A stretch of DNA of 64,000 nt from Vicinamibacteria bacterium (GTDB taxonomy: Bacteria; Acidobacteriota; Vicinamibacteria; Fen-336), in NCBI GenBank assembly GCA_023701125.1, contig JAMPXO010000009.1, positions 5,264 to 69,263 of the forward strand, in the 5' to 3' direction. Made by a program: the position numbers and the translations under genes. Positions 57,193 to 64,000 of this stretch are shown here, piece by piece; the stretch's first letter is position 1; every line of letters starts with the position of its first letter. A model generated the notes under the pieces. It was given only the letters and a program-made list of their open reading frames with translations. It did not search any database and was not told the origin of the DNA.

Positions 57193-57331
57193 GACGCCTC
57201 GCTCCCCCGTGTTTCGGATGGAAGAAAGATAGGCGAACGAAAAGCGAAGGTCAAGGTGTTTCTGTAGGCCGAATTCAAATCGAGTGCACCGCCGTGGCGC
57301 GGGGCGTAGGCTCCCGCCGGAGTTCCAGCGA

Positions 57332-58984
57332 ATGGCGACCACGTGCGCGGCTTGCGGCAGCCCGCTCGACGCCTCGGCGCGCTTCTGCCCGGGCTGCGGC
57401 GAGCGGGTCCGCGTCGTGGAACCGCCCGTCGATCCGACCCGCCACCTGCTCGAGCGGGCGCTCGGCACTCACTACCGCATCGAGCGCGAACTGGGCCGCG
57501 GCGGAATGGGGGTCGTCTACTTCGCCCACGAGGGCGGCCTCGACCGCGACGTGGCCATCAAGGTACTGCCGCCCGACAAGGCCGAGTCGGAGCTGCACCG
57601 CGAGCGCTTCCGGCGCGAGGCGCGCACGGCCGCCCGACTGAGTCACCCGAACGTCGTACCGCTCCACGCGTTCGGCGAGCACCAGGGAATGCTCTATTAC
57701 GTGATGGGGTACGTCGACGGCGAGTCGCTCGCCGAGCGGATGCAGCGCGAGGGGCCCATGTCCGAGCCCGAGACCCGGCGCATCCTGACCGCCATCGCCG
57801 ACGCGCTCCACCATGCCCACCAGCAGGGCATCGTCCATCGCGACGTGAAGCCGCAGAACGTCCTGCTCGAGGCGGGCTCGGGTCGACCGATGCTGACCGA
57901 CTTCGGCATCTCCAAGCTCGCCGCCGAAGGCAGCGCGCTGACCGCGGCGGGCCTCGTCATCGGCACGCCCGACTACCTGTCGCCCGAGCAGGCCTCGGGC
58001 AGCACCGAGGTCGGACCGCTGGCGGACATCTACTCGCTCGGCGTGGTCGGCTACGCGATGCTCTCGGGCCGGTTGCCGTTCGCGAGCCGCACCGCGGGCG
58101 AGGCGATCGTCAAGCGGTTGACGACCGCGGCGCCACCGCTGGCCGCCGTCGCGCCGGCCACGAGCCCCGCGATGGTCGAGGCCGTGATGCGGTGCCTCGC
58201 GAAGGACCCCGCGCAGCGCTGGCCCGACGCTGCGGCCTTCGCCCGCGCGATCGCCGCACCGGGAGATGAGGAGCAGGGACAGTTCGAGAGCGTCGGCCTG
58301 CTGACTCTCGCCCTGGTGTACTACGCGCTGGTGTCGCGACTGATCTGGGCGGTCGCCGAGCAGGCCGGGCCCGTGATCGAGATCGCCAGCCAGGCGTTGC
58401 CTGCGCTGGCCACGCTCGGGCTGCTGGTGATGGCCGGCAGCTTCGTTCACCTCCGGCGCCAGGGCCACTCGCTGTCGGCCTGGGCCCACGAGATGTTCCG
58501 CGAGCCGCCGGTCTGGATCCTGTGGTACCCGCGCCCGCTGCGCCGCGCCGGCAACGTGTGGGACCAGCTTCCTCGCGACGTGCGCTGGCTGCGGGCGGGT
58601 TTCAGCGCCTTCGTCGCCGGAACGCTCCTCGTCCTCGTTCCGCTGCTGGTGGTGGTGGCCGTGACCCCGAGCGGGCCGGGCCGCTGGCTGAGCACCTGGC
58701 CGCGTTCCGTACGCGTCGCGAGCGGACTGGGCACCACCGCGGCGTTCCTCGCGTGGCTCGTCGCCGCCTGGCGGGTCCCGGAGCGCCTGCGTCGGCGTGG
58801 ACTCAGCCATTGGGAGGCAGAGAGTGTCGCTGTCGGCTCGCCCCTGGCGCGCGCGGCGTTCTGGTCGCGGCCGGCCGTCGCGGTTTTGCTCGGCGCGGCG
58901 AAACAGCCGCGCTCCACGACCGCCGCCGCTGGCCCCTCGACCCACGACGACACCCGCACGATGGGCGGTGGTGGGCCGTGCTAG
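57332..58984 (+). CDS. Ser/Thr protein kinase with N-terminal zinc ribbon and C-terminal membrane region
   Basis: CAACG..CPGCG ribbon. GRGGMGVVY, VAIKVL, HRDVKPQNVLL, DFGISK, GTPDYLSPE. Confidence 0.8.
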   Translation: MATTCAACGSPLDASARFCPGCGERVRVVEPPVDPTRHLLERALGTHYRIERELGRGGMGVVYFAHEGGLDRDVAIKVLPPDKAESELHRERFRREARTAARLSHPNVVPLHAFGEHQGMLYYVMGYVDGESLAERMQREGPMSEPETRRILTAIADALHHAHQQGIVHRDVKPQNVLLEAGSGRPMLTDFGISKLAAEGSALTAAGLVIGTPDYLSPEQASGSTEVGPLADIYSLGVVGYAMLSGRLPFASRTAGEAIVKRLTTAAPPLAAVAPATSPAMVEAVMRCLAKDPAQRWPDAAAFARAIAAPGDEEQGQFESVGLLTLALVYYALVSRLIWAVAEQAGPVIEIASQALPALATLGLLVMAGSFVHLRRQGHSLSAWAHEMFREPPVWILWYPRPLRRAGNVWDQLPRDVRWLRAGFSAFVAGTLLVLVPLLVVVAVTPSGPGRWLSTWPRSVRVASGLGTTAAFLAWLVAAWRVPERLRRRGLSHWEAESVAVGSPLARAAFWSRPAVAVLLGAAKQPRSTTAAAGPSTHDDTRTMGGGGPC

Positions 58985-59020: not shown

Positions 59021-59527
59021 ATGGTGTTGACGAAGGCCGAGTTGATCGCATCCCTGCAGAACGAAGTCCGCATCCTGCTGCACCTCGCCGGCAAGATCGA
59101 TTCGGCGAAGCTCGACTACCGGCCGACGCCGAAGCAGCGCAGCACGTTCGAACTGCTCAAGTACCTGAGCATGATGGGCCCGGCCCTGGTGCGGGCCGCG
59201 AAGACGGGCGCGTTCGACGAGGCCGCGTGGACGGCGGAGGAGAAGTCGGCCGCGGCGCGCAGCTTCGACGAGACGCTGAAGGCGATCGCGAACCAGTCCG
59301 ACGCCTACGCGAGCCTGCTCGCGGACGTCTCGGACGCCGACCTGCGCGCGGAGGTCGACCCGTTCGGCATGGGCAAGACCTCGCGCGGGGCGTTCATCGT
59401 CAACGTGGTGCTCTGCGGCTGCGCCGCCTACCGCACCCAGCTCTTCCTTTACCTCAAGGCCTGCGGCCGCGAGGAGCTGAGCACGATGAACCTGTGGGGC
59501 GGAGTCGACGCGCCAGCCGAGGGCTAG
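59021..59527 (+). CDS. hypothetical helical protein (DinB_2-like)
   Basis: 168 aa, coherent composition. No firm family call. Confidence 0.5.
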   Translation: MVLTKAELIASLQNEVRILLHLAGKIDSAKLDYRPTPKQRSTFELLKYLSMMGPALVRAAKTGAFDEAAWTAEEKSAAARSFDETLKAIANQSDAYASLLADVSDADLRAEVDPFGMGKTSRGAFIVNVVLCGCAAYRTQLFLYLKACGREELSTMNLWGGVDAPAEG

Positions 59528-59608: not shown

Positions 59609-60973
59609 CTACTGGACGGCGCGCCCCGCGTTCACGAAGCCCTTGCCGTAGACGGGGTCGGTCCCCTTCTTGCCCTCGTCGTCCGCGCTCTGCGCGAGCT
59701 TCGCCTTCAGCTCGCCGAGCGAGATGCCGGGGTTCTTCTGCTTGATCAGCGCCGCCACGGCCGAAGCGGCCGGGGCCGCCATGCTGGTGCCAGCCGTCCA
59801 GGTGTACGAGCTGATGCTGGCGCCCGAGCCGCGGCTCGTGCTGATCACCATGTCGAACGCCCAGCAGGGGATCGTCGCGCTGCCCGATCCGGTCGAGAAC
59901 GGCAGGGTGCAGCCGGCGTTGCCCGGCAGGGCGAAGTCGCCGCCGGGCGCCGCCACGTGGATCACCGAGGTGCCGATGTTCGTGTAGGAGGCCTGGCGCC
60001 GGAAGTTCGTCGCGCCGAGGGCGAACCCGACCGGTCCGGTCGACGAGACCGCGATGCCGCTGCCCGACTCGGCCGGCACGGAGATCAGCGACGCCGACTG
60101 GTCGAGATCGAGCCCGTCGTTGCCCGCCGCCGAGACGACCAGCACGCCGTGACGGTCGGCGTAGTTCACCGCCTTGGCCATCGCCGCGACCAGCGGACCG
60201 GCGCCCGTGTTGCCGCCGCCCCGCGGGAAGACCGCACCCAGGCTCATGTTGATGATGTCCGCTCCACCGCCGCCCTCGGCCAGCGGCGTGGCCGCGTAGA
60301 GGATGCCGGCGATCACCCAGCCGAAGCTGCCGGAGCCGCTGTGCAGGACCTTGACGCCGACGAGCGTCGCGTCGGGCGCGATGCCGACCGAGCCGATGCT
60401 GTTGTTGGCCGCCGCCACGATGCCCGCGACGTGGGTGCCGTGCCACAGCGTCCCGGTGTCCTGGTTGAAGGCGAAGCCCGGCACGAACGAGCGCGACGCC
60501 GCGACGTCGAGATTGGTCCGCAGGTCGATGTGGGTCGAGTGGATGCCGCCGTCGACGATCGCGACGCGCACGCCGCGGCCCGTGTAGCCGGCATCCCAGG
60601 CCGCCGGCGCGTCGACCGCCTGCGGCGCCCACTGGATGTAGCGGTAGTAGTGGTCGTTCGGGGTGACGGCCAGTTCTTCGAGCGCCACCGTCTGCGTCGG
60701 CTTCTGCCACTCGACGACCATGTCCTCGTCCACCGACGAGAACGCCCCGCTCGCCCTCAGGCGTGCGGCGAAGTCGTCCGCCTCGGACGAGACGACGGCG
60801 AGGCCGGCGCCGTCATGCGAAAAATCGACGCTGCCGCCGGCCGCGGCCACGGCCGCCGCCTGATCCTGCCCCCAGTGGGGCGCGTTCACGACATAAGTCC
60901 GAGGCGTGGCCTGGGCCGACACGGCGCCGACGGCCACCACGACTGAGAAAACGAGCGTTCTGCGGAGGTCCAA
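59609..60973 (-). CDS. secreted S8-family subtilisin-like serine protease
   Basis: Signal peptide. D/H/S triad regions (VAIVDGG, HGTHVAGIVAA, GTSMAAP). Confidence 0.85.
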   Translation of the reverse strand: MDLRRTLVFSVVVAVGAVSAQATPRTYVVNAPHWGQDQAAAVAAAGGSVDFSHDGAGLAVVSSEADDFAARLRASGAFSSVDEDMVVEWQKPTQTVALEELAVTPNDHYYRYIQWAPQAVDAPAAWDAGYTGRGVRVAIVDGGIHSTHIDLRTNLDVAASRSFVPGFAFNQDTGTLWHGTHVAGIVAAANNSIGSVGIAPDATLVGVKVLHSGSGSFGWVIAGILYAATPLAEGGGGADIINMSLGAVFPRGGGNTGAGPLVAAMAKAVNYADRHGVLVVSAAGNDGLDLDQSASLISVPAESGSGIAVSSTGPVGFALGATNFRRQASYTNIGTSVIHVAAPGGDFALPGNAGCTLPFSTGSGSATIPCWAFDMVISTSRGSGASISSYTWTAGTSMAAPAASAVAALIKQKNPGISLGELKAKLAQSADDEGKKGTDPVYGKGFVNAGRAVQ

Positions 60974-61121
60974 GCTGGGGTACTCCTCTGAGCTTGCGAC
61001 TCGGGTCTCGCCACCGGCCGAGAAGGCCTTGGCATACAGGGGGTTGGACGGAAGGTTCGTACCATGGGCCGAGCGCCGCAGTCAAGGACTTTGGGACGGG
61101 GTCGACGCGCCCGCCGAGGTT

Positions 61122-61697
61122 CTAGGCCAGCGTCCCCAGCCACCAGGCGTGGAGATCGTCGGCGCCGGTGATCTCCGGGTGGAAGGTCGCGGCGACCACA
61201 CGGCCCTCGCGGACGAGGACCGGGGCGTCGGCGTGGGCGGCGAGCACCTCCACGCCGGCGCCCAGTTGCACGAAGCGCGGCGCGCGGATGAACGCCACGC
61301 CCAGCGGGGCGGCCAGCACGCTGACCGCGAGGTCCGTCTCGAACGAGTCGACCTGGCGGCCGTACGCGTTGCGTTCGATCGTGGCGTCGAGCAGGGCCAG
61401 GCTCTCCTGCGCGGGGTGGCGCACCTCGCGCGAGAGCAGGATCGCGCCAGCGCACGTGCCGAACAGGCTCGCGCCGCGGGCATGGAACGCGCGCAGCGCC
61501 TCGAACCACGGCTCGTCGCGCATCAGGTTGAGCAGCGTGCTGCTCTCGCCGCCCGGGATGACCAGCCCCGCGAGGCCGTCGAGCTGCGCCACGCGGCGGA
61601 TCTCGAGGGGCGCGGCGCCGCAGCGCGCCAGCGCCTTCGCGTGCGCGTCGTAGTCGCCCTGCAGGGCCAGGACGCCGACGGGTGGCATTGCGCTCAT
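61122..61697 (-). CDS. pdxT: pyridoxal 5'-phosphate synthase glutaminase subunit PdxT
   Basis: VGVLALQGD, GTCAG catalytic Cys. Start 61697 gives an ATGA overlap with the PhzF stop. ATG 61688 is the alternative. Confidence 0.85.
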   Translation of the reverse strand: MSAMPPVGVLALQGDYDAHAKALARCGAAPLEIRRVAQLDGLAGLVIPGGESSTLLNLMRDEPWFEALRAFHARGASLFGTCAGAILLSREVRHPAQESLALLDATIERNAYGRQVDSFETDLAVSVLAAPLGVAFIRAPRFVQLGAGVEVLAAHADAPVLVREGRVVAATFHPEITGADDLHAWWLGTLA

Positions 61698-62599
61698 TCC
61701 GGACATTCCATCTCGCCGGAGGACACGCGCACCGCGGTGCCGCCGACTCGGGTCGCCACCACTTCCCCGCCATGCTTGACGGCCTCGATCTCGAGCCGCG
61801 ACGGGCGGCCCATCTCGGTCCCCTGCAGCAGGGTCCAGGCCAGCACGCCGTCGGGCCGCGGGTCGAGGGCGCCGAGCAGGCCCGCGAACGCGACCGCCGC
61901 CGCGCCCGTCGCCGGGTCCTCCGGGATGCCGATCCCGGGCCCGAACATCCGCACCCGCAGCGGCTGCGAAGAATCCGGATCGCCCGCGACGACGTACACC
62001 TGCGGCGACCACTCGGCGGCCAGCGTGCGCTGCCACTCGGCCATCTGCAGCCGCGCGCGGCCGAGGGCGTCGACGTCGCGCAGCGGGACCACCAGGAAGC
62101 GCCCGCCCGCCGAGATGAACGTGGGGCCGAGCGTCGGGTGGTCGAGATCGTCGTCGCTCAGCCCGAGCATCGCGGCCAGCGCGGGCACGCGCGGTGGCCG
62201 CGGGCCGAGCTCGGTCGCCCGCGCCTCGAGTTGCGCGAACTGCAGCACGCCTCCACTGCCGCGCAGGCGGACCTTGATCGGCCCCACTCCTTCTTCGAAC
62301 ACGATTTCGGCTTGGGGGTCGGGCGTCGGCACCAGGCCGAGCGCCGCCAGCAGGAACGCGGTGCCGATCGTCGGGTGGCCCGCGAACGGCAGCTCCGCGC
62401 CAGGCGTGAAGATGCGCAGCTTCGCCAGCCCGCCCTGCTCCGGCGGACGCACGAACACGGTCTCCGACAGGTTCAACTCGCGGGCGATCGTCTGCATCTG
62501 CGCGTCGGACAGCGCCGGTGCGTCCGGAAAAACCGCGAGCGGGTTGCCGGTGAAGGGCTTGTCGGTGAAGACGTCGAGCGTGTGGAAGGCGAGCTTCAT
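61694..62599 (-). CDS. PhzF-family (phenazine-biosynthesis-like) isomerase
   Basis: MKLAFHTLDVFTDKPFTGNPLAVF..., two-domain DAP-epimerase-like architecture. Confidence 0.8.
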   Translation of the reverse strand: MKLAFHTLDVFTDKPFTGNPLAVFPDAPALSDAQMQTIARELNLSETVFVRPPEQGGLAKLRIFTPGAELPFAGHPTIGTAFLLAALGLVPTPDPQAEIVFEEGVGPIKVRLRGSGGVLQFAQLEARATELGPRPPRVPALAAMLGLSDDDLDHPTLGPTFISAGGRFLVVPLRDVDALGRARLQMAEWQRTLAAEWSPQVYVVAGDPDSSQPLRVRMFGPGIGIPEDPATGAAAVAFAGLLGALDPRPDGVLAWTLLQGTEMGRPSRLEIEAVKHGGEVVATRVGGTAVRVSSGEMECPE

Positions 62600-62612
62600 C
62601 TCGGATCGGGGG

Positions 62613-63266
62613 TCAGAGGATCGCGAACGCGCGCACCGTGAACGTGCCGAGGCCGCGGATCGGCGGCGGCACGGCGAAGAAGCGGAAACCGCTGGCCGGC
62701 AGTTGGTCGAGGCCGGTCAGGTGCTCGCAGACCGGGATGCCCGCGGCGAGCAGGTGCGTGTGGGCGGGCCGGCGCAGGTCGGCGGTGTCGTCGATGTTGA
62801 AGGAGTCGATGCCGACCAGCGCGGCTCCGGCCGCGACCAGCGCCTGCGCCGCGTCCTCGGCGACAAAGGGGTGGCCCTCGGCGTAGGCGTCGGTCGCGAA
62901 GTGGCGCGACCAGCCGGTGCGGAACAGCACGGCGCAGCCGCGCAGGTCGCGACCGGTCACGGCCGCGGCGGTGATCGCGCGAGCGTCGATGCCGGCGTCG
63001 ACCACCACGCCCGGCAGGTCGGCGACGCTCGCCAGCGGCAGCGCCGACACATCGGGCCGGCCCTCGAAGCGATGCGCCGGCGCGTCCACGTAGGTGCCCG
63101 TGTTGGCGATCATGTCGATGCGGCCGATGTGGAACGTCGTCCCGGGGGCGTAGCGCCCCGACGCGTCGGCGTAACCGAGGTACTCGGAGAGCCGCGGCGC
63201 GGGCAGGCCCTTGTAGGTGACGAGGCCGTCGTGGACGACGTGCGACAGGTCGACGAGCCGGCTCAC
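62613..63266 (-). CDS. cyclase-family protein (kynurenine-formamidase-like, PF04199-type)
   Basis: GTG start overlaps the pdxS stop. Motif region [13 protein letters not shown] resembles HxGTHxDxPxH but with two His positions substituted. Confidence 0.7.
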
Positions 63267-64000
63267 CAGCCCCGGCCCTGGAGCCGCTCGGCCTCGGGGA
63301 TCGTGCTGATCTCGATGCCCTTCATCGGGTCGCCCAGGCCCTTCGAGACCTCGAGCACGATCTTCGCGTCCTGCCAGTGGGTGGTGGCGCGCACGATCGC
63401 CTTGGCCACCAGCGCGGGGTTCTGCGACTTGAAGATGCCCGAGCCGACGAAGTTGGCCTCGGCGCCCAGCGCGCGCATCAGCGCGGCGTCGGCCGGGGTG
63501 GCGATGCCGCCCGCCGAGAAGTTCGGCACCGGCAGCTTGCCGTCGCGGGCGACCATCCGCACCAGCTCGTACGGCGCGCCTAGGTTCTTGGCCTCGGCCA
63601 TCAGCTCCTCGGGACCGAGGATGGTCAGCCGCCGGATGCCGCCCATCAGCGCGCGCATGTGGCGCACGGCCTCGACCACGTTGCCGGTGCCCGCCTCGCC
63701 CTTGGTGCGGATCATCGCGGCGCCTTCGCCGATCCGGCGCAGCGCCTCGCCCAGGTTGCGGCAGCCGCACACGAACGGGACCGTGAAGGCGTGCTTGTCG
63801 ACGTGGAACTCCTCGTCGGCCGGGGTCAGCACCTCGGACTCGTCGATGTAGTCGACGCCCATCGCCTCCAGCACCCGGGCCTCGGTGAAGTGGCCGATCC
63901 GGCACTTCGCCATCACCGGGATGGAGACGGTCTCCATGATCTGCTCGATGATCCGCGGGTCGGTCATGCGGGCGACGCCGCCGTCCCTGCGGATGTCGGA
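63263..64000 (-). CDS. pdxS: pyridoxal 5'-phosphate synthase lyase subunit PdxS (partial, N-terminus beyond window)
   Basis: [28 protein letters not shown], and a C-terminus typical of PdxS. The true start lies past 64000 (the track's M at 63967 is internal). Confidence 0.85.

Follow-up and report, generated by a model that had tools for sequence, protein, structure and literature searches.

A Vicinamibacteria pdxST operon split by a cyclase-family gene and a PhzF-family gene, candidate passengers of a pyridoxal phosphate regulon

The genes pdxS and pdxT encode the lyase and glutaminase subunits of pyridoxal 5'-phosphate (PLP) synthase. In a 64,000-nucleotide stretch of DNA from a Vicinamibacteria bacterium (contig JAMPXO010000009.1 of assembly GCA_023701125.1; the whole stretch that was analysed is called the window), we found that these two genes are separated by a gene for a cyclase-family protein and a gene for a PhzF-family isomerase. 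The four genes are all encoded on the minus strand, in the order pdxS, cyclase, PhzF, pdxT, and occupy the final 2.9 kb of the window, where we distinguish the following features:

63263..>64000, minus strand: pdxS (PLP synthase lyase subunit); the 3' 245 codons and the stop codon are within the window, the 5' end is beyond it
63263..63266, minus strand: GTGA overlap of the cyclase GTG start and the pdxS TGA stop, read from the sequence
62613..63266, minus strand: cyclase-family gene (PF04199 match), 217 aa, GTG start, N..Y subfamily
63072..63104, minus strand: cyclase motif N55-T-G-T-Y59-V-D61-A-P-A-H65 (residues 55-65), in place of HxGTHxDxPxH
62724..62762, minus strand: cyclase His169 and Glu181-His182 (equivalents of KynB His161 and Glu173, second metal site), kept according to invariant columns and the alignment to 1r61 and KynB
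61694..62599, minus strand: PhzF-family isomerase gene, 301 aa (PF02567, TIGR00654)
61694..61697, minus strand: ATGA overlap of the pdxT ATG start and the PhzF TGA stop, read from the sequence
61122..61697, minus strand: pdxT (PLP synthase glutaminase subunit), 191 aa (PF01174, TIGR03800)

Domain scores and junction sequences confirmed the gene identities, the gene order and the two 4-nt overlaps given in a preliminary description of the locus. Its statement that all four genes are translationally coupled was slightly overstated, as it fits the overlaps at pdxS/cyclase and PhzF/pdxT but not the junction between the cyclase and PhzF genes, which are separated by a 13-nt spacer in the window. 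In the relatives L001, L082 and L166 this junction is a 1-nt overlap and the 4-nt overlap of pdxS and the cyclase gene recurs in the gene calls; the ATGA overlap of PhzF and pdxT is also present in relatives. A scan of positions 60700-64000 revealed no promoter-like site anywhere and no terminator-like site between any of the four genes, and the sole terminator-like hairpin in this interval, at chance level, lies within an S8 peptidase gene. An Rfam search at gathering thresholds, covering the entire window, returned no riboswitch or other RNA. The G+C content of the window is 72.6%, and recent horizontal transfer of any of the four genes was rejected on composition, the G+C content at third codon positions (GC3) being 92-99% in every one of them.

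The two synthase genes gave unambiguous domain matches. The 245-residue partial PdxS product matched PF01680 (3.4e-82) and scored 422.9 against the cut-off of 395 of the NCBIfam PdxS equivalog NF003215; its score of 398.6 for TIGR00343 is below the cut-off of 438.45, as expected with about 50 N-terminal residues outside the window. Its C-terminal end reads ...ERLQGRGW*. The catalytic lysines of PdxS are Lys81 and Lys149 (Bacillus subtilis numbering); in the translation, MAKCRIGHF and a second 10-residue motif can be read by eye. PdxT matched PF01174 (1.2e-42) and TIGR03800 (192.4, cut-off 105.55) and contains GTCAG and FHPE, which, from class I glutamine amidotransferases in general, we take to be the Cys and His/Glu motifs of the catalytic triad. 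Judged by these matches, pdxS and pdxT are intact PLP synthase genes at this locus, pdxS over the part read in the window.

Conservation of the four-gene order in relatives had been proposed as a check, and close relatives kept it. The order pdxS-cyclase-PhzF-pdxT, with the same overlaps, was found in the window and in six fetched loci (L001, L082, L169, L166, L167 and L168). In L001, L082 and L166, identity to the window was 83-96% for pdxS, 84-89% for the cyclase, 79-82% for PhzF and 86% for pdxT; the PhzF protein of L169 (P0125) was 76% identical, and one database protein, P0121, which NCBI naming places in a Vicinamibacteria metagenome-assembled genome, was 100% identical to the window PhzF. 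Compared with L166 or L001, the window genes gave ratios of nonsynonymous to synonymous substitution rates (dN/dS) of 0.15-0.17 (pdxS), 0.21-0.25 (cyclase), 0.24-0.26 (PhzF) and 0.21 (pdxT), values that are rough because dS is constrained by a GC3 of about 95%. These ratios indicate that all four genes are under purifying selection.

We next consider the cyclase-family protein, which matched PF04199 (1.4e-22; 80.8 bits versus a cut-off of 23.1). The preliminary description had noted that two His ligands of its metal motif are replaced and had suggested altered or lost Zn binding. The substitution is real. In a profile alignment built from the window cyclase and 20 homologues, the motif aligned with HTGTHIDAPLH of PDB 1r61, with the KynB motif and with 8hmo, placing N and Y opposite two His residues, so that the alignment to KynB and PF04199 called for in the preliminary description shows that these His ligands are indeed not conserved. 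In Bacillus anthracis KynB, one Zn is bound by His50, His54 and Asp56 and the other by Asp56, His161 and Glu173, with His60 as the proposed general base (PMC4243253). KynB His50 and His54 are replaced by Asn55 and Tyr59 in the window cyclase, and four of the six KynB metal and base residues are kept as Asp61, His65 (the general base), His169 and Glu181. The columns of N55, Y59, D61, H65, His169 and Glu181 were all invariant (alignment A1).

The replacement extends far beyond this locus. All of the 120 best database homologues (59-94% identical) carry N..Y. A HMMER search over 1.84 billion cluster representatives at 50% identity gave 209 clusters with E < 1e-30; among the best 150 of these, which were inspected, 97 had N..Y, 7 had S..Y, 2 had A..Y and none had H..H, the remainder being mostly fragments without the motif region. 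These 120 proteins and 150 representatives are the independent counts, since 80 further genome loci were fetched by a pattern containing ANTGTY and their N..Y in 80 of 80 is circular. The homologues come from Acidobacteriota, Gemmatimonadota, Chloroflexota, Planctomycetota, Verrucomicrobiota, Proteobacteria, Actinomycetota and Bacteroidota. On sequence comparison, N..Y is thus the signature of a large, conserved, phylum-spanning PF04199 subfamily, and the 'His-depleted' motif reflects neither local decay nor a defect. That the cyclase gene is a pseudogene or decaying was rejected on its intact frame, its dN/dS of 0.21-0.25 and its invariant active-site columns. In six cluster representatives (P0242, P0246, P0247, P0254, P0268 and P0373), the N..Y domain is C-terminal in proteins of 357-500 residues, which may be fusions or have mis-called starts.

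An AlphaFold2 model of the cyclase (mean predicted local distance difference test score 86.6) has the fold of the family. Foldseek placed it at template modelling (TM) scores of 0.77-0.82 to 8F9X, 5NNA, 3KRV, 4M8D and 4COB; the best PDB matches were the cyclase-phosphotriesterase 8F9X, isatin hydrolases, 3KRV/1R61, 8HMO and KynB, and sequence identity to solved structures was 21-28%. The protein therefore resembles KynB (PDB 4CO9, 4COB and 4COG), isatin hydrolase and 8F9X in its PF04199 domain, in a fold matching at a TM score of about 0.8, and in the Asp, the base His and the His/Glu pair of the second site, but it differs from KynB in having Asn/Tyr for the HxGTH His pair, and kynurenine-pathway neighbours were not found. 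We rejected its identification as KynB because its score against the arylformamidase equivalog TIGR03035 was 52.6, far short of the cut-off of 223, because His50 and His54 are replaced and because no kynurenine-pathway genes were seen among the neighbours in the window or in L166. The kynurenine-type chemistry raised in the preliminary description was, with the same TIGR03035 score, not borne out.

PF04199 enzymes without the two motif His are known. The MGS0169 esterase and the trans-dienelactone hydrolase of Pseudomonas reinekei keep the Asp and the last His of the motif and are active with Q..Q..D..H, preferring Mn2+ (PMC5341072). Their motif, Q-x3-Q-x-D-x3-H, has Gln/Gln where the window protein has Asn/Tyr, and their activity is Mn2+-stimulated (PMC5341072). 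MGS0169 is larger than the window cyclase, with its motif at residues 127-137, and its structure 5IBZ fits the model less well (TM 0.73). Because such His-less enzymes are active and the motif is conserved across the subfamily, we read the motif as a different metal centre and not as lost function. Most likely, the cyclase is a working hydrolase whose metal centre has changed, with either only the Asp/His/Glu site in use or a harder metal, for example Mn, bound by Asn and Tyr. Of the earlier remark on Zn binding, the substitution at Asn55 and Tyr59 stands, and the notion of loss gives way to an invariant subfamily signature with the ligands of the other site kept.

The PhzF-family protein matched PF02567 (6.7e-59) and TIGR00654 (224.9 versus a cut-off of 76.2). 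Alignment to 1t6k and 1u1v showed that Glu45, His74 and Asp208 of Pseudomonas fluorescens PhzF are all identical in the window protein, which thus shares family membership and catalytic residues with PhzF proper (PDB 1U1W and 1T6K). No phz genes were seen near the window gene, whose neighbours are pdxS, the cyclase gene, pdxT, the S8 peptidase gene and a DinB-like gene, or in L166. We rejected a phenazine-biosynthetic PhzF, that is, a trans-2,3-dihydro-3-hydroxyanthranilate isomerase proper, for want of a phzA-G cluster context in the window or L166. The comparisons place the window protein among the many non-phenazine PhzF homologues. YddE of Escherichia coli and PA4716 also belong there, and the window protein is far below the YddE-type equivalog (114 versus 386). 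Nine homologues at 55-59% identity (P0138, P0152, P0153, P0171, P0181, P0184, P0186, P0196 and P0240) carry a C-terminal fusion to a RidA/L-PSP domain, a family of imine/enamine deaminases; in P0184, the PF02567 match spans residues 8-290 and the PF01042 match residues 313-423. A literature search for PhzF-RidA fusions found no paper.

Outside the clade of the window the four-gene order is gone. As a sample from the pdx side, we took 74 metagenomic loci that contain both pdxS and pdxT (pdxT 43-68% identical). The two genes lie within 300 nt of each other in 70 of them, with a median gap of 22 nt, and relatives whose pdxT is 61-68% identical to that of the window show the canonical arrangement, with pdxS next to pdxT. 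Other cargo splits pdxS and pdxT in the remaining 4 of 74 loci, different in each:

L093:251-1207: a PALP-fold PLP-dependent enzyme
L151:930-2592: two GNAT acetyltransferases, a 103-aa open reading frame (ORF) and a TumE-like toxin
L120:2695-3356: a 76-aa ORF and a PIN toxin
L130:1590-2000: a small ORF of about 130 aa

In a further locus, L105, pdxS and pdxT are adjacent and a PhzF-family gene directly follows pdxT (L105:1228-1394), cut at the contig end and 51% identical over its first 55 residues. The pdxT of L105 is 64% identical to that of the window, and this adjacency of pdx and PhzF genes is an independent one.

From the side of the inserted genes, cyclase homologues at 66-70% identity have unrelated neighbours, and PhzF homologues at 58-59% identity stand in unrelated contexts. 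The four-gene order is confined to a narrow clade of soil Acidobacteria, probably Vicinamibacteria. The distribution that the preliminary description had named as telling against its proposal, relatives with adjacent pdxST and the two genes elsewhere, is thus for the most part what we found, in relatives with pdxT at 61-68% identity and in homologues of the cyclase at up to 70% and of PhzF at up to 59%. The second closest cyclase homologue found outside the clade (69% identical) lies at L172:299-1876, where it is followed by genes for a glyoxalase-fold protein and a PNPOx_N (pyridoxamine-phosphate-oxidase-like) protein that overlap or abut; the same trio recurs at L046:6001-7577, one of the 80 genome loci.

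With the window ending within pdxS, what lies upstream of this gene was read in relatives. In L166 (GCA_011526565.1), the operon runs decarboxylase-EamA-pdxS-cyclase-PhzF-pdxT and is divergent from a gene for a MocR-type regulator, with GntR and aminotransferase domains (L166:501-1907, minus strand). The decarboxylase is a group II PLP-dependent enzyme (PF00282) and EamA is a drug/metabolite transporter (DMT) permease with weak matches to amino-acid/amine and aromatic amino-acid exporter models; both are encoded on the same strand as pdxS. Orthologues of the regulator (51-56% identical) are divergent from plain pdxS-pdxT in L087, L088 and L094 and, as partial copies ending at the contig end, in L091 and L102, and they adjoin decarboxylase-pdxS-pdxT in L086 and L104. 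In eight intergenic regions (L166:1880-2030, L086, L087, L088, L091, L094, L102 and L104), the palindrome ATTGTCAYGGTGACAAT is invariant over the MocR start codon, and 3' of it are -35-like (TTGACA/TTGCAT) and -10-like (TAnATT) hexamers. A second palindrome, ATTGTATCGATACAAT, is usually present in these regions. We regard ATTGTCAYGGTGACAAT as a candidate operator of a PdxR-like regulator. The box ATTGTCA-N3-TGACAAT had no match in the window at up to two mismatches.

This arrangement resembles the PdxR-pdxST divergon. In Firmicutes and Actinobacteria, apo-PdxR activates pdxST and PLP counteracts this, as summarised in PMC5320631. According to that paper, PdxR, PdxQ and other MocR regulons recurrently include PhzF-like COG384 proteins, DMT transporters, GNATs and PLP-dependent enzymes. 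The likeness to the divergons of Corynebacterium glutamicum, Listeria, Streptococcus and Bacillus clausii (PMC5320631) lies in pdxS and pdxT being in one operon, in the divergent GntR-aminotransferase regulator of the relatives with a palindromic box over the regulator start, and in extra PLP-related genes joining the regulon. By contrast, pdxS and pdxT of the window are split by two genes, a layout that the portion of PMC5320631 available to us does not mention for PdxR regulons; the regulator of L166 does not reach the cut-off of the PdxR equivalog, NCBIfam names it EhuR, and the phylum is Acidobacteriota.

We slightly favour the reading that the cyclase and PhzF proteins are co-regulated passengers of the PLP regulon. 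On this reading they probably serve, along with the decarboxylase and the exporter, in amine or amino-acid metabolism that depends on PLP. Their pairing would be lineage-specific and not a conserved pathway module, and neither protein would be a component or a modifier of PLP synthase. In the course of events that we propose, a PdxR-like pdxST operon would have accreted four genes in one Vicinamibacteria lineage, including the two that now separate pdxS from pdxT. If the region upstream of the window matches the arrangement of L166, then, as L166 and the relatives with plain pdxST suggest, transcription would start at the promoter beside the divergent MocR gene, at the ATTGTCA-N3-TGACAAT box. 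The same promoter would serve plain pdxS-pdxT in sister lineages and decarboxylase-EamA-pdxS-cyclase-PhzF-pdxT in the window clade; as it would drive the whole operon, the six proteins would be made together. The regulator would respond to PLP, and by analogy with PdxR in other phyla its control would consist of activation at low PLP.

Several observations weigh against this reading. In none of the 80 genome loci were pdxS or pdxT within 6 kb of the cyclases, which are 52-63% identical to that of the window; a distant PhzF paralogue was near only 3 of the 80 cyclase genes and, in a targeted tblastn search, a MocR gene near only 2. Clustering of the flanking ORFs within 3 kb on either side of these 80 genes gave no family in more than 6 loci. 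The regulator of L166 scored above the NCBIfam cut-off for EhuR, a regulator of ectoine utilisation (502 versus 480), and below that for PdxR (211 versus 320); the EhuR call may be an automatic misnaming, and we consider the conserved position beside pdxS a better guide. The regulator, the decarboxylase and EamA were read in L166, a relative, and not in the window, and the dN/dS values carry the roughness noted above. Co-transcription may also have no functional meaning, because neither inserted family is associated with pdx genes outside the clade. In the same tblastn survey of the 80 loci, EamA, decarboxylase and RidA genes were near none of the cyclase genes, and PNPOx-like and glyoxalase genes were near one.

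One possible alternative, which we hold to be clearly less probable, is neutral hitch-hiking, in which the cyclase-PhzF pair was inserted once in the ancestor of the clade, did no harm, and encodes unrelated housekeeping or detoxification enzymes. It would account for an arrangement limited to a narrow clade, for pdxS-pdxT adjacency in 70 of the 74 pdxT relatives, for unrelated cargo at the same junction elsewhere, including toxin-antitoxin-like genes, and for an N..Y cyclase without conserved neighbours across 80 genomes and PhzF relatives at 58-59% identity in unrelated contexts. However, the rest of the accreted operon of L166 is clearly PLP-related, with its PLP-dependent decarboxylase and MocR regulator, and the non-toxin cargo of other lineages (the PALP enzyme and the GNATs) is also of PLP-regulon type, going by PMC5320631, in which PhzF-like genes recur in MocR/PLP regulons of other phyla. 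Hitch-hiking also leaves aside the independent lineage of L105, with its PhzF gene directly 3' of pdxT, and the tight overlaps that are kept across the clade.

It is doubtful that the decarboxylase, the N..Y hydrolase, PhzF and EamA form a dedicated pathway that makes and exports one amine or aromatic metabolite, with PLP synthase supplying the cofactor. The gene content of L166 would fit such a pathway, as would the weak matches of EamA to amino-acid/amine and aromatic amino-acid exporter models, the complete catalytic residues of PhzF and the fusion of close PhzF homologues to domains of the RidA imine/enamine deaminase family. But the four non-pdx genes are not together elsewhere (L086 has the decarboxylase without the cyclase or PhzF), neither EamA nor the decarboxylase was found near the 80 cyclase loci, and the score of the cyclase is too low for the arylformamidase equivalog. 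Genes of tryptophan/kynurenine or chorismate/phenazine metabolism were not seen, and the gene set is small, without a recognisable scaffold-forming enzyme. A tailoring function associated with PdxST, also raised in the preliminary description, found nothing in its support: that the cyclase and PhzF proteins tailor PLP or B6 vitamers, repair a PdxS side product or bind the PdxS/PdxT complex is very improbable, as only the position between the subunit genes, the translational coupling and the speculation in PMC5320631 that PdxQ-regulated PhzF-like proteins might join PLP metabolism speak for it, whereas PdxST occurs without such neighbours in almost every organism that has it and both families are abundant in genomes without pdx linkage. 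To our knowledge, no interaction or chemistry of this kind has been described.

Returning to the passengers of a PLP regulon, we find the hint of a PLP-linked pathway, which the preliminary description drew from co-translation with PLP synthase, weakly supported: the PLP-dependent decarboxylase and DMT permease of L166, its divergent MocR regulator, which is of a PLP-sensing type, and the PhzF and DMT genes of MocR regulons (PMC5320631) are consistent with it, whereas the adjacent pdxST of relatives and the homologues located elsewhere are not. A bolder version, which we think improbable, would make the N..Y cyclase and the RidA-associated PhzF type members of a PLP-responsive MocR regulon for B6-linked amine/imine metabolism or damage control, with the decarboxylase and the DMT exporter, and the N..Y proteins a class with a re-built metal centre, having either Asn/Tyr for His/His or one Asp-His-Glu site.

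The split pdxST with its cyclase-PhzF cargo is genuine, but it is a local variation on an operon type already described, and the gene families are known. The regulatory theme, in which PhzF-like proteins and DMT transporters are linked to PLP regulators, is already published, and the locus fits the regulon reconstructions of PMC5320631. It would illustrate how a MocR-controlled pdxST operon can gain cargo, even between the subunit genes. The labels that annotation pipelines give to the two inserted genes, 'kynurenine formamidase' and 'trans-2,3-dihydro-3-hydroxyanthranilate isomerase', are unsupported here. The most useful lead is the N..Y subfamily, with about 200 clusters (50% identity, E < 1e-30) in many phyla and no conserved neighbours. 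Our searches found no characterised member, and the subfamily is a reasonable target for enzymology, for which the operon gives one testable regulatory handle.

Beyond the 3' end of pdxT, the window carries an S8 subtilase gene at 59609-60973 on the minus strand (PF00082, 4.4e-48), whose place is taken in L001, L082 and L166 by a gene for a 170-aa protein of unknown function. Further on are a DinB-like gene at 59021-59527 on the plus strand and, also on the plus strand, an ORF at 57284-58984 for a probable Ser/Thr protein kinase with a Cys-rich segment at its beginning.

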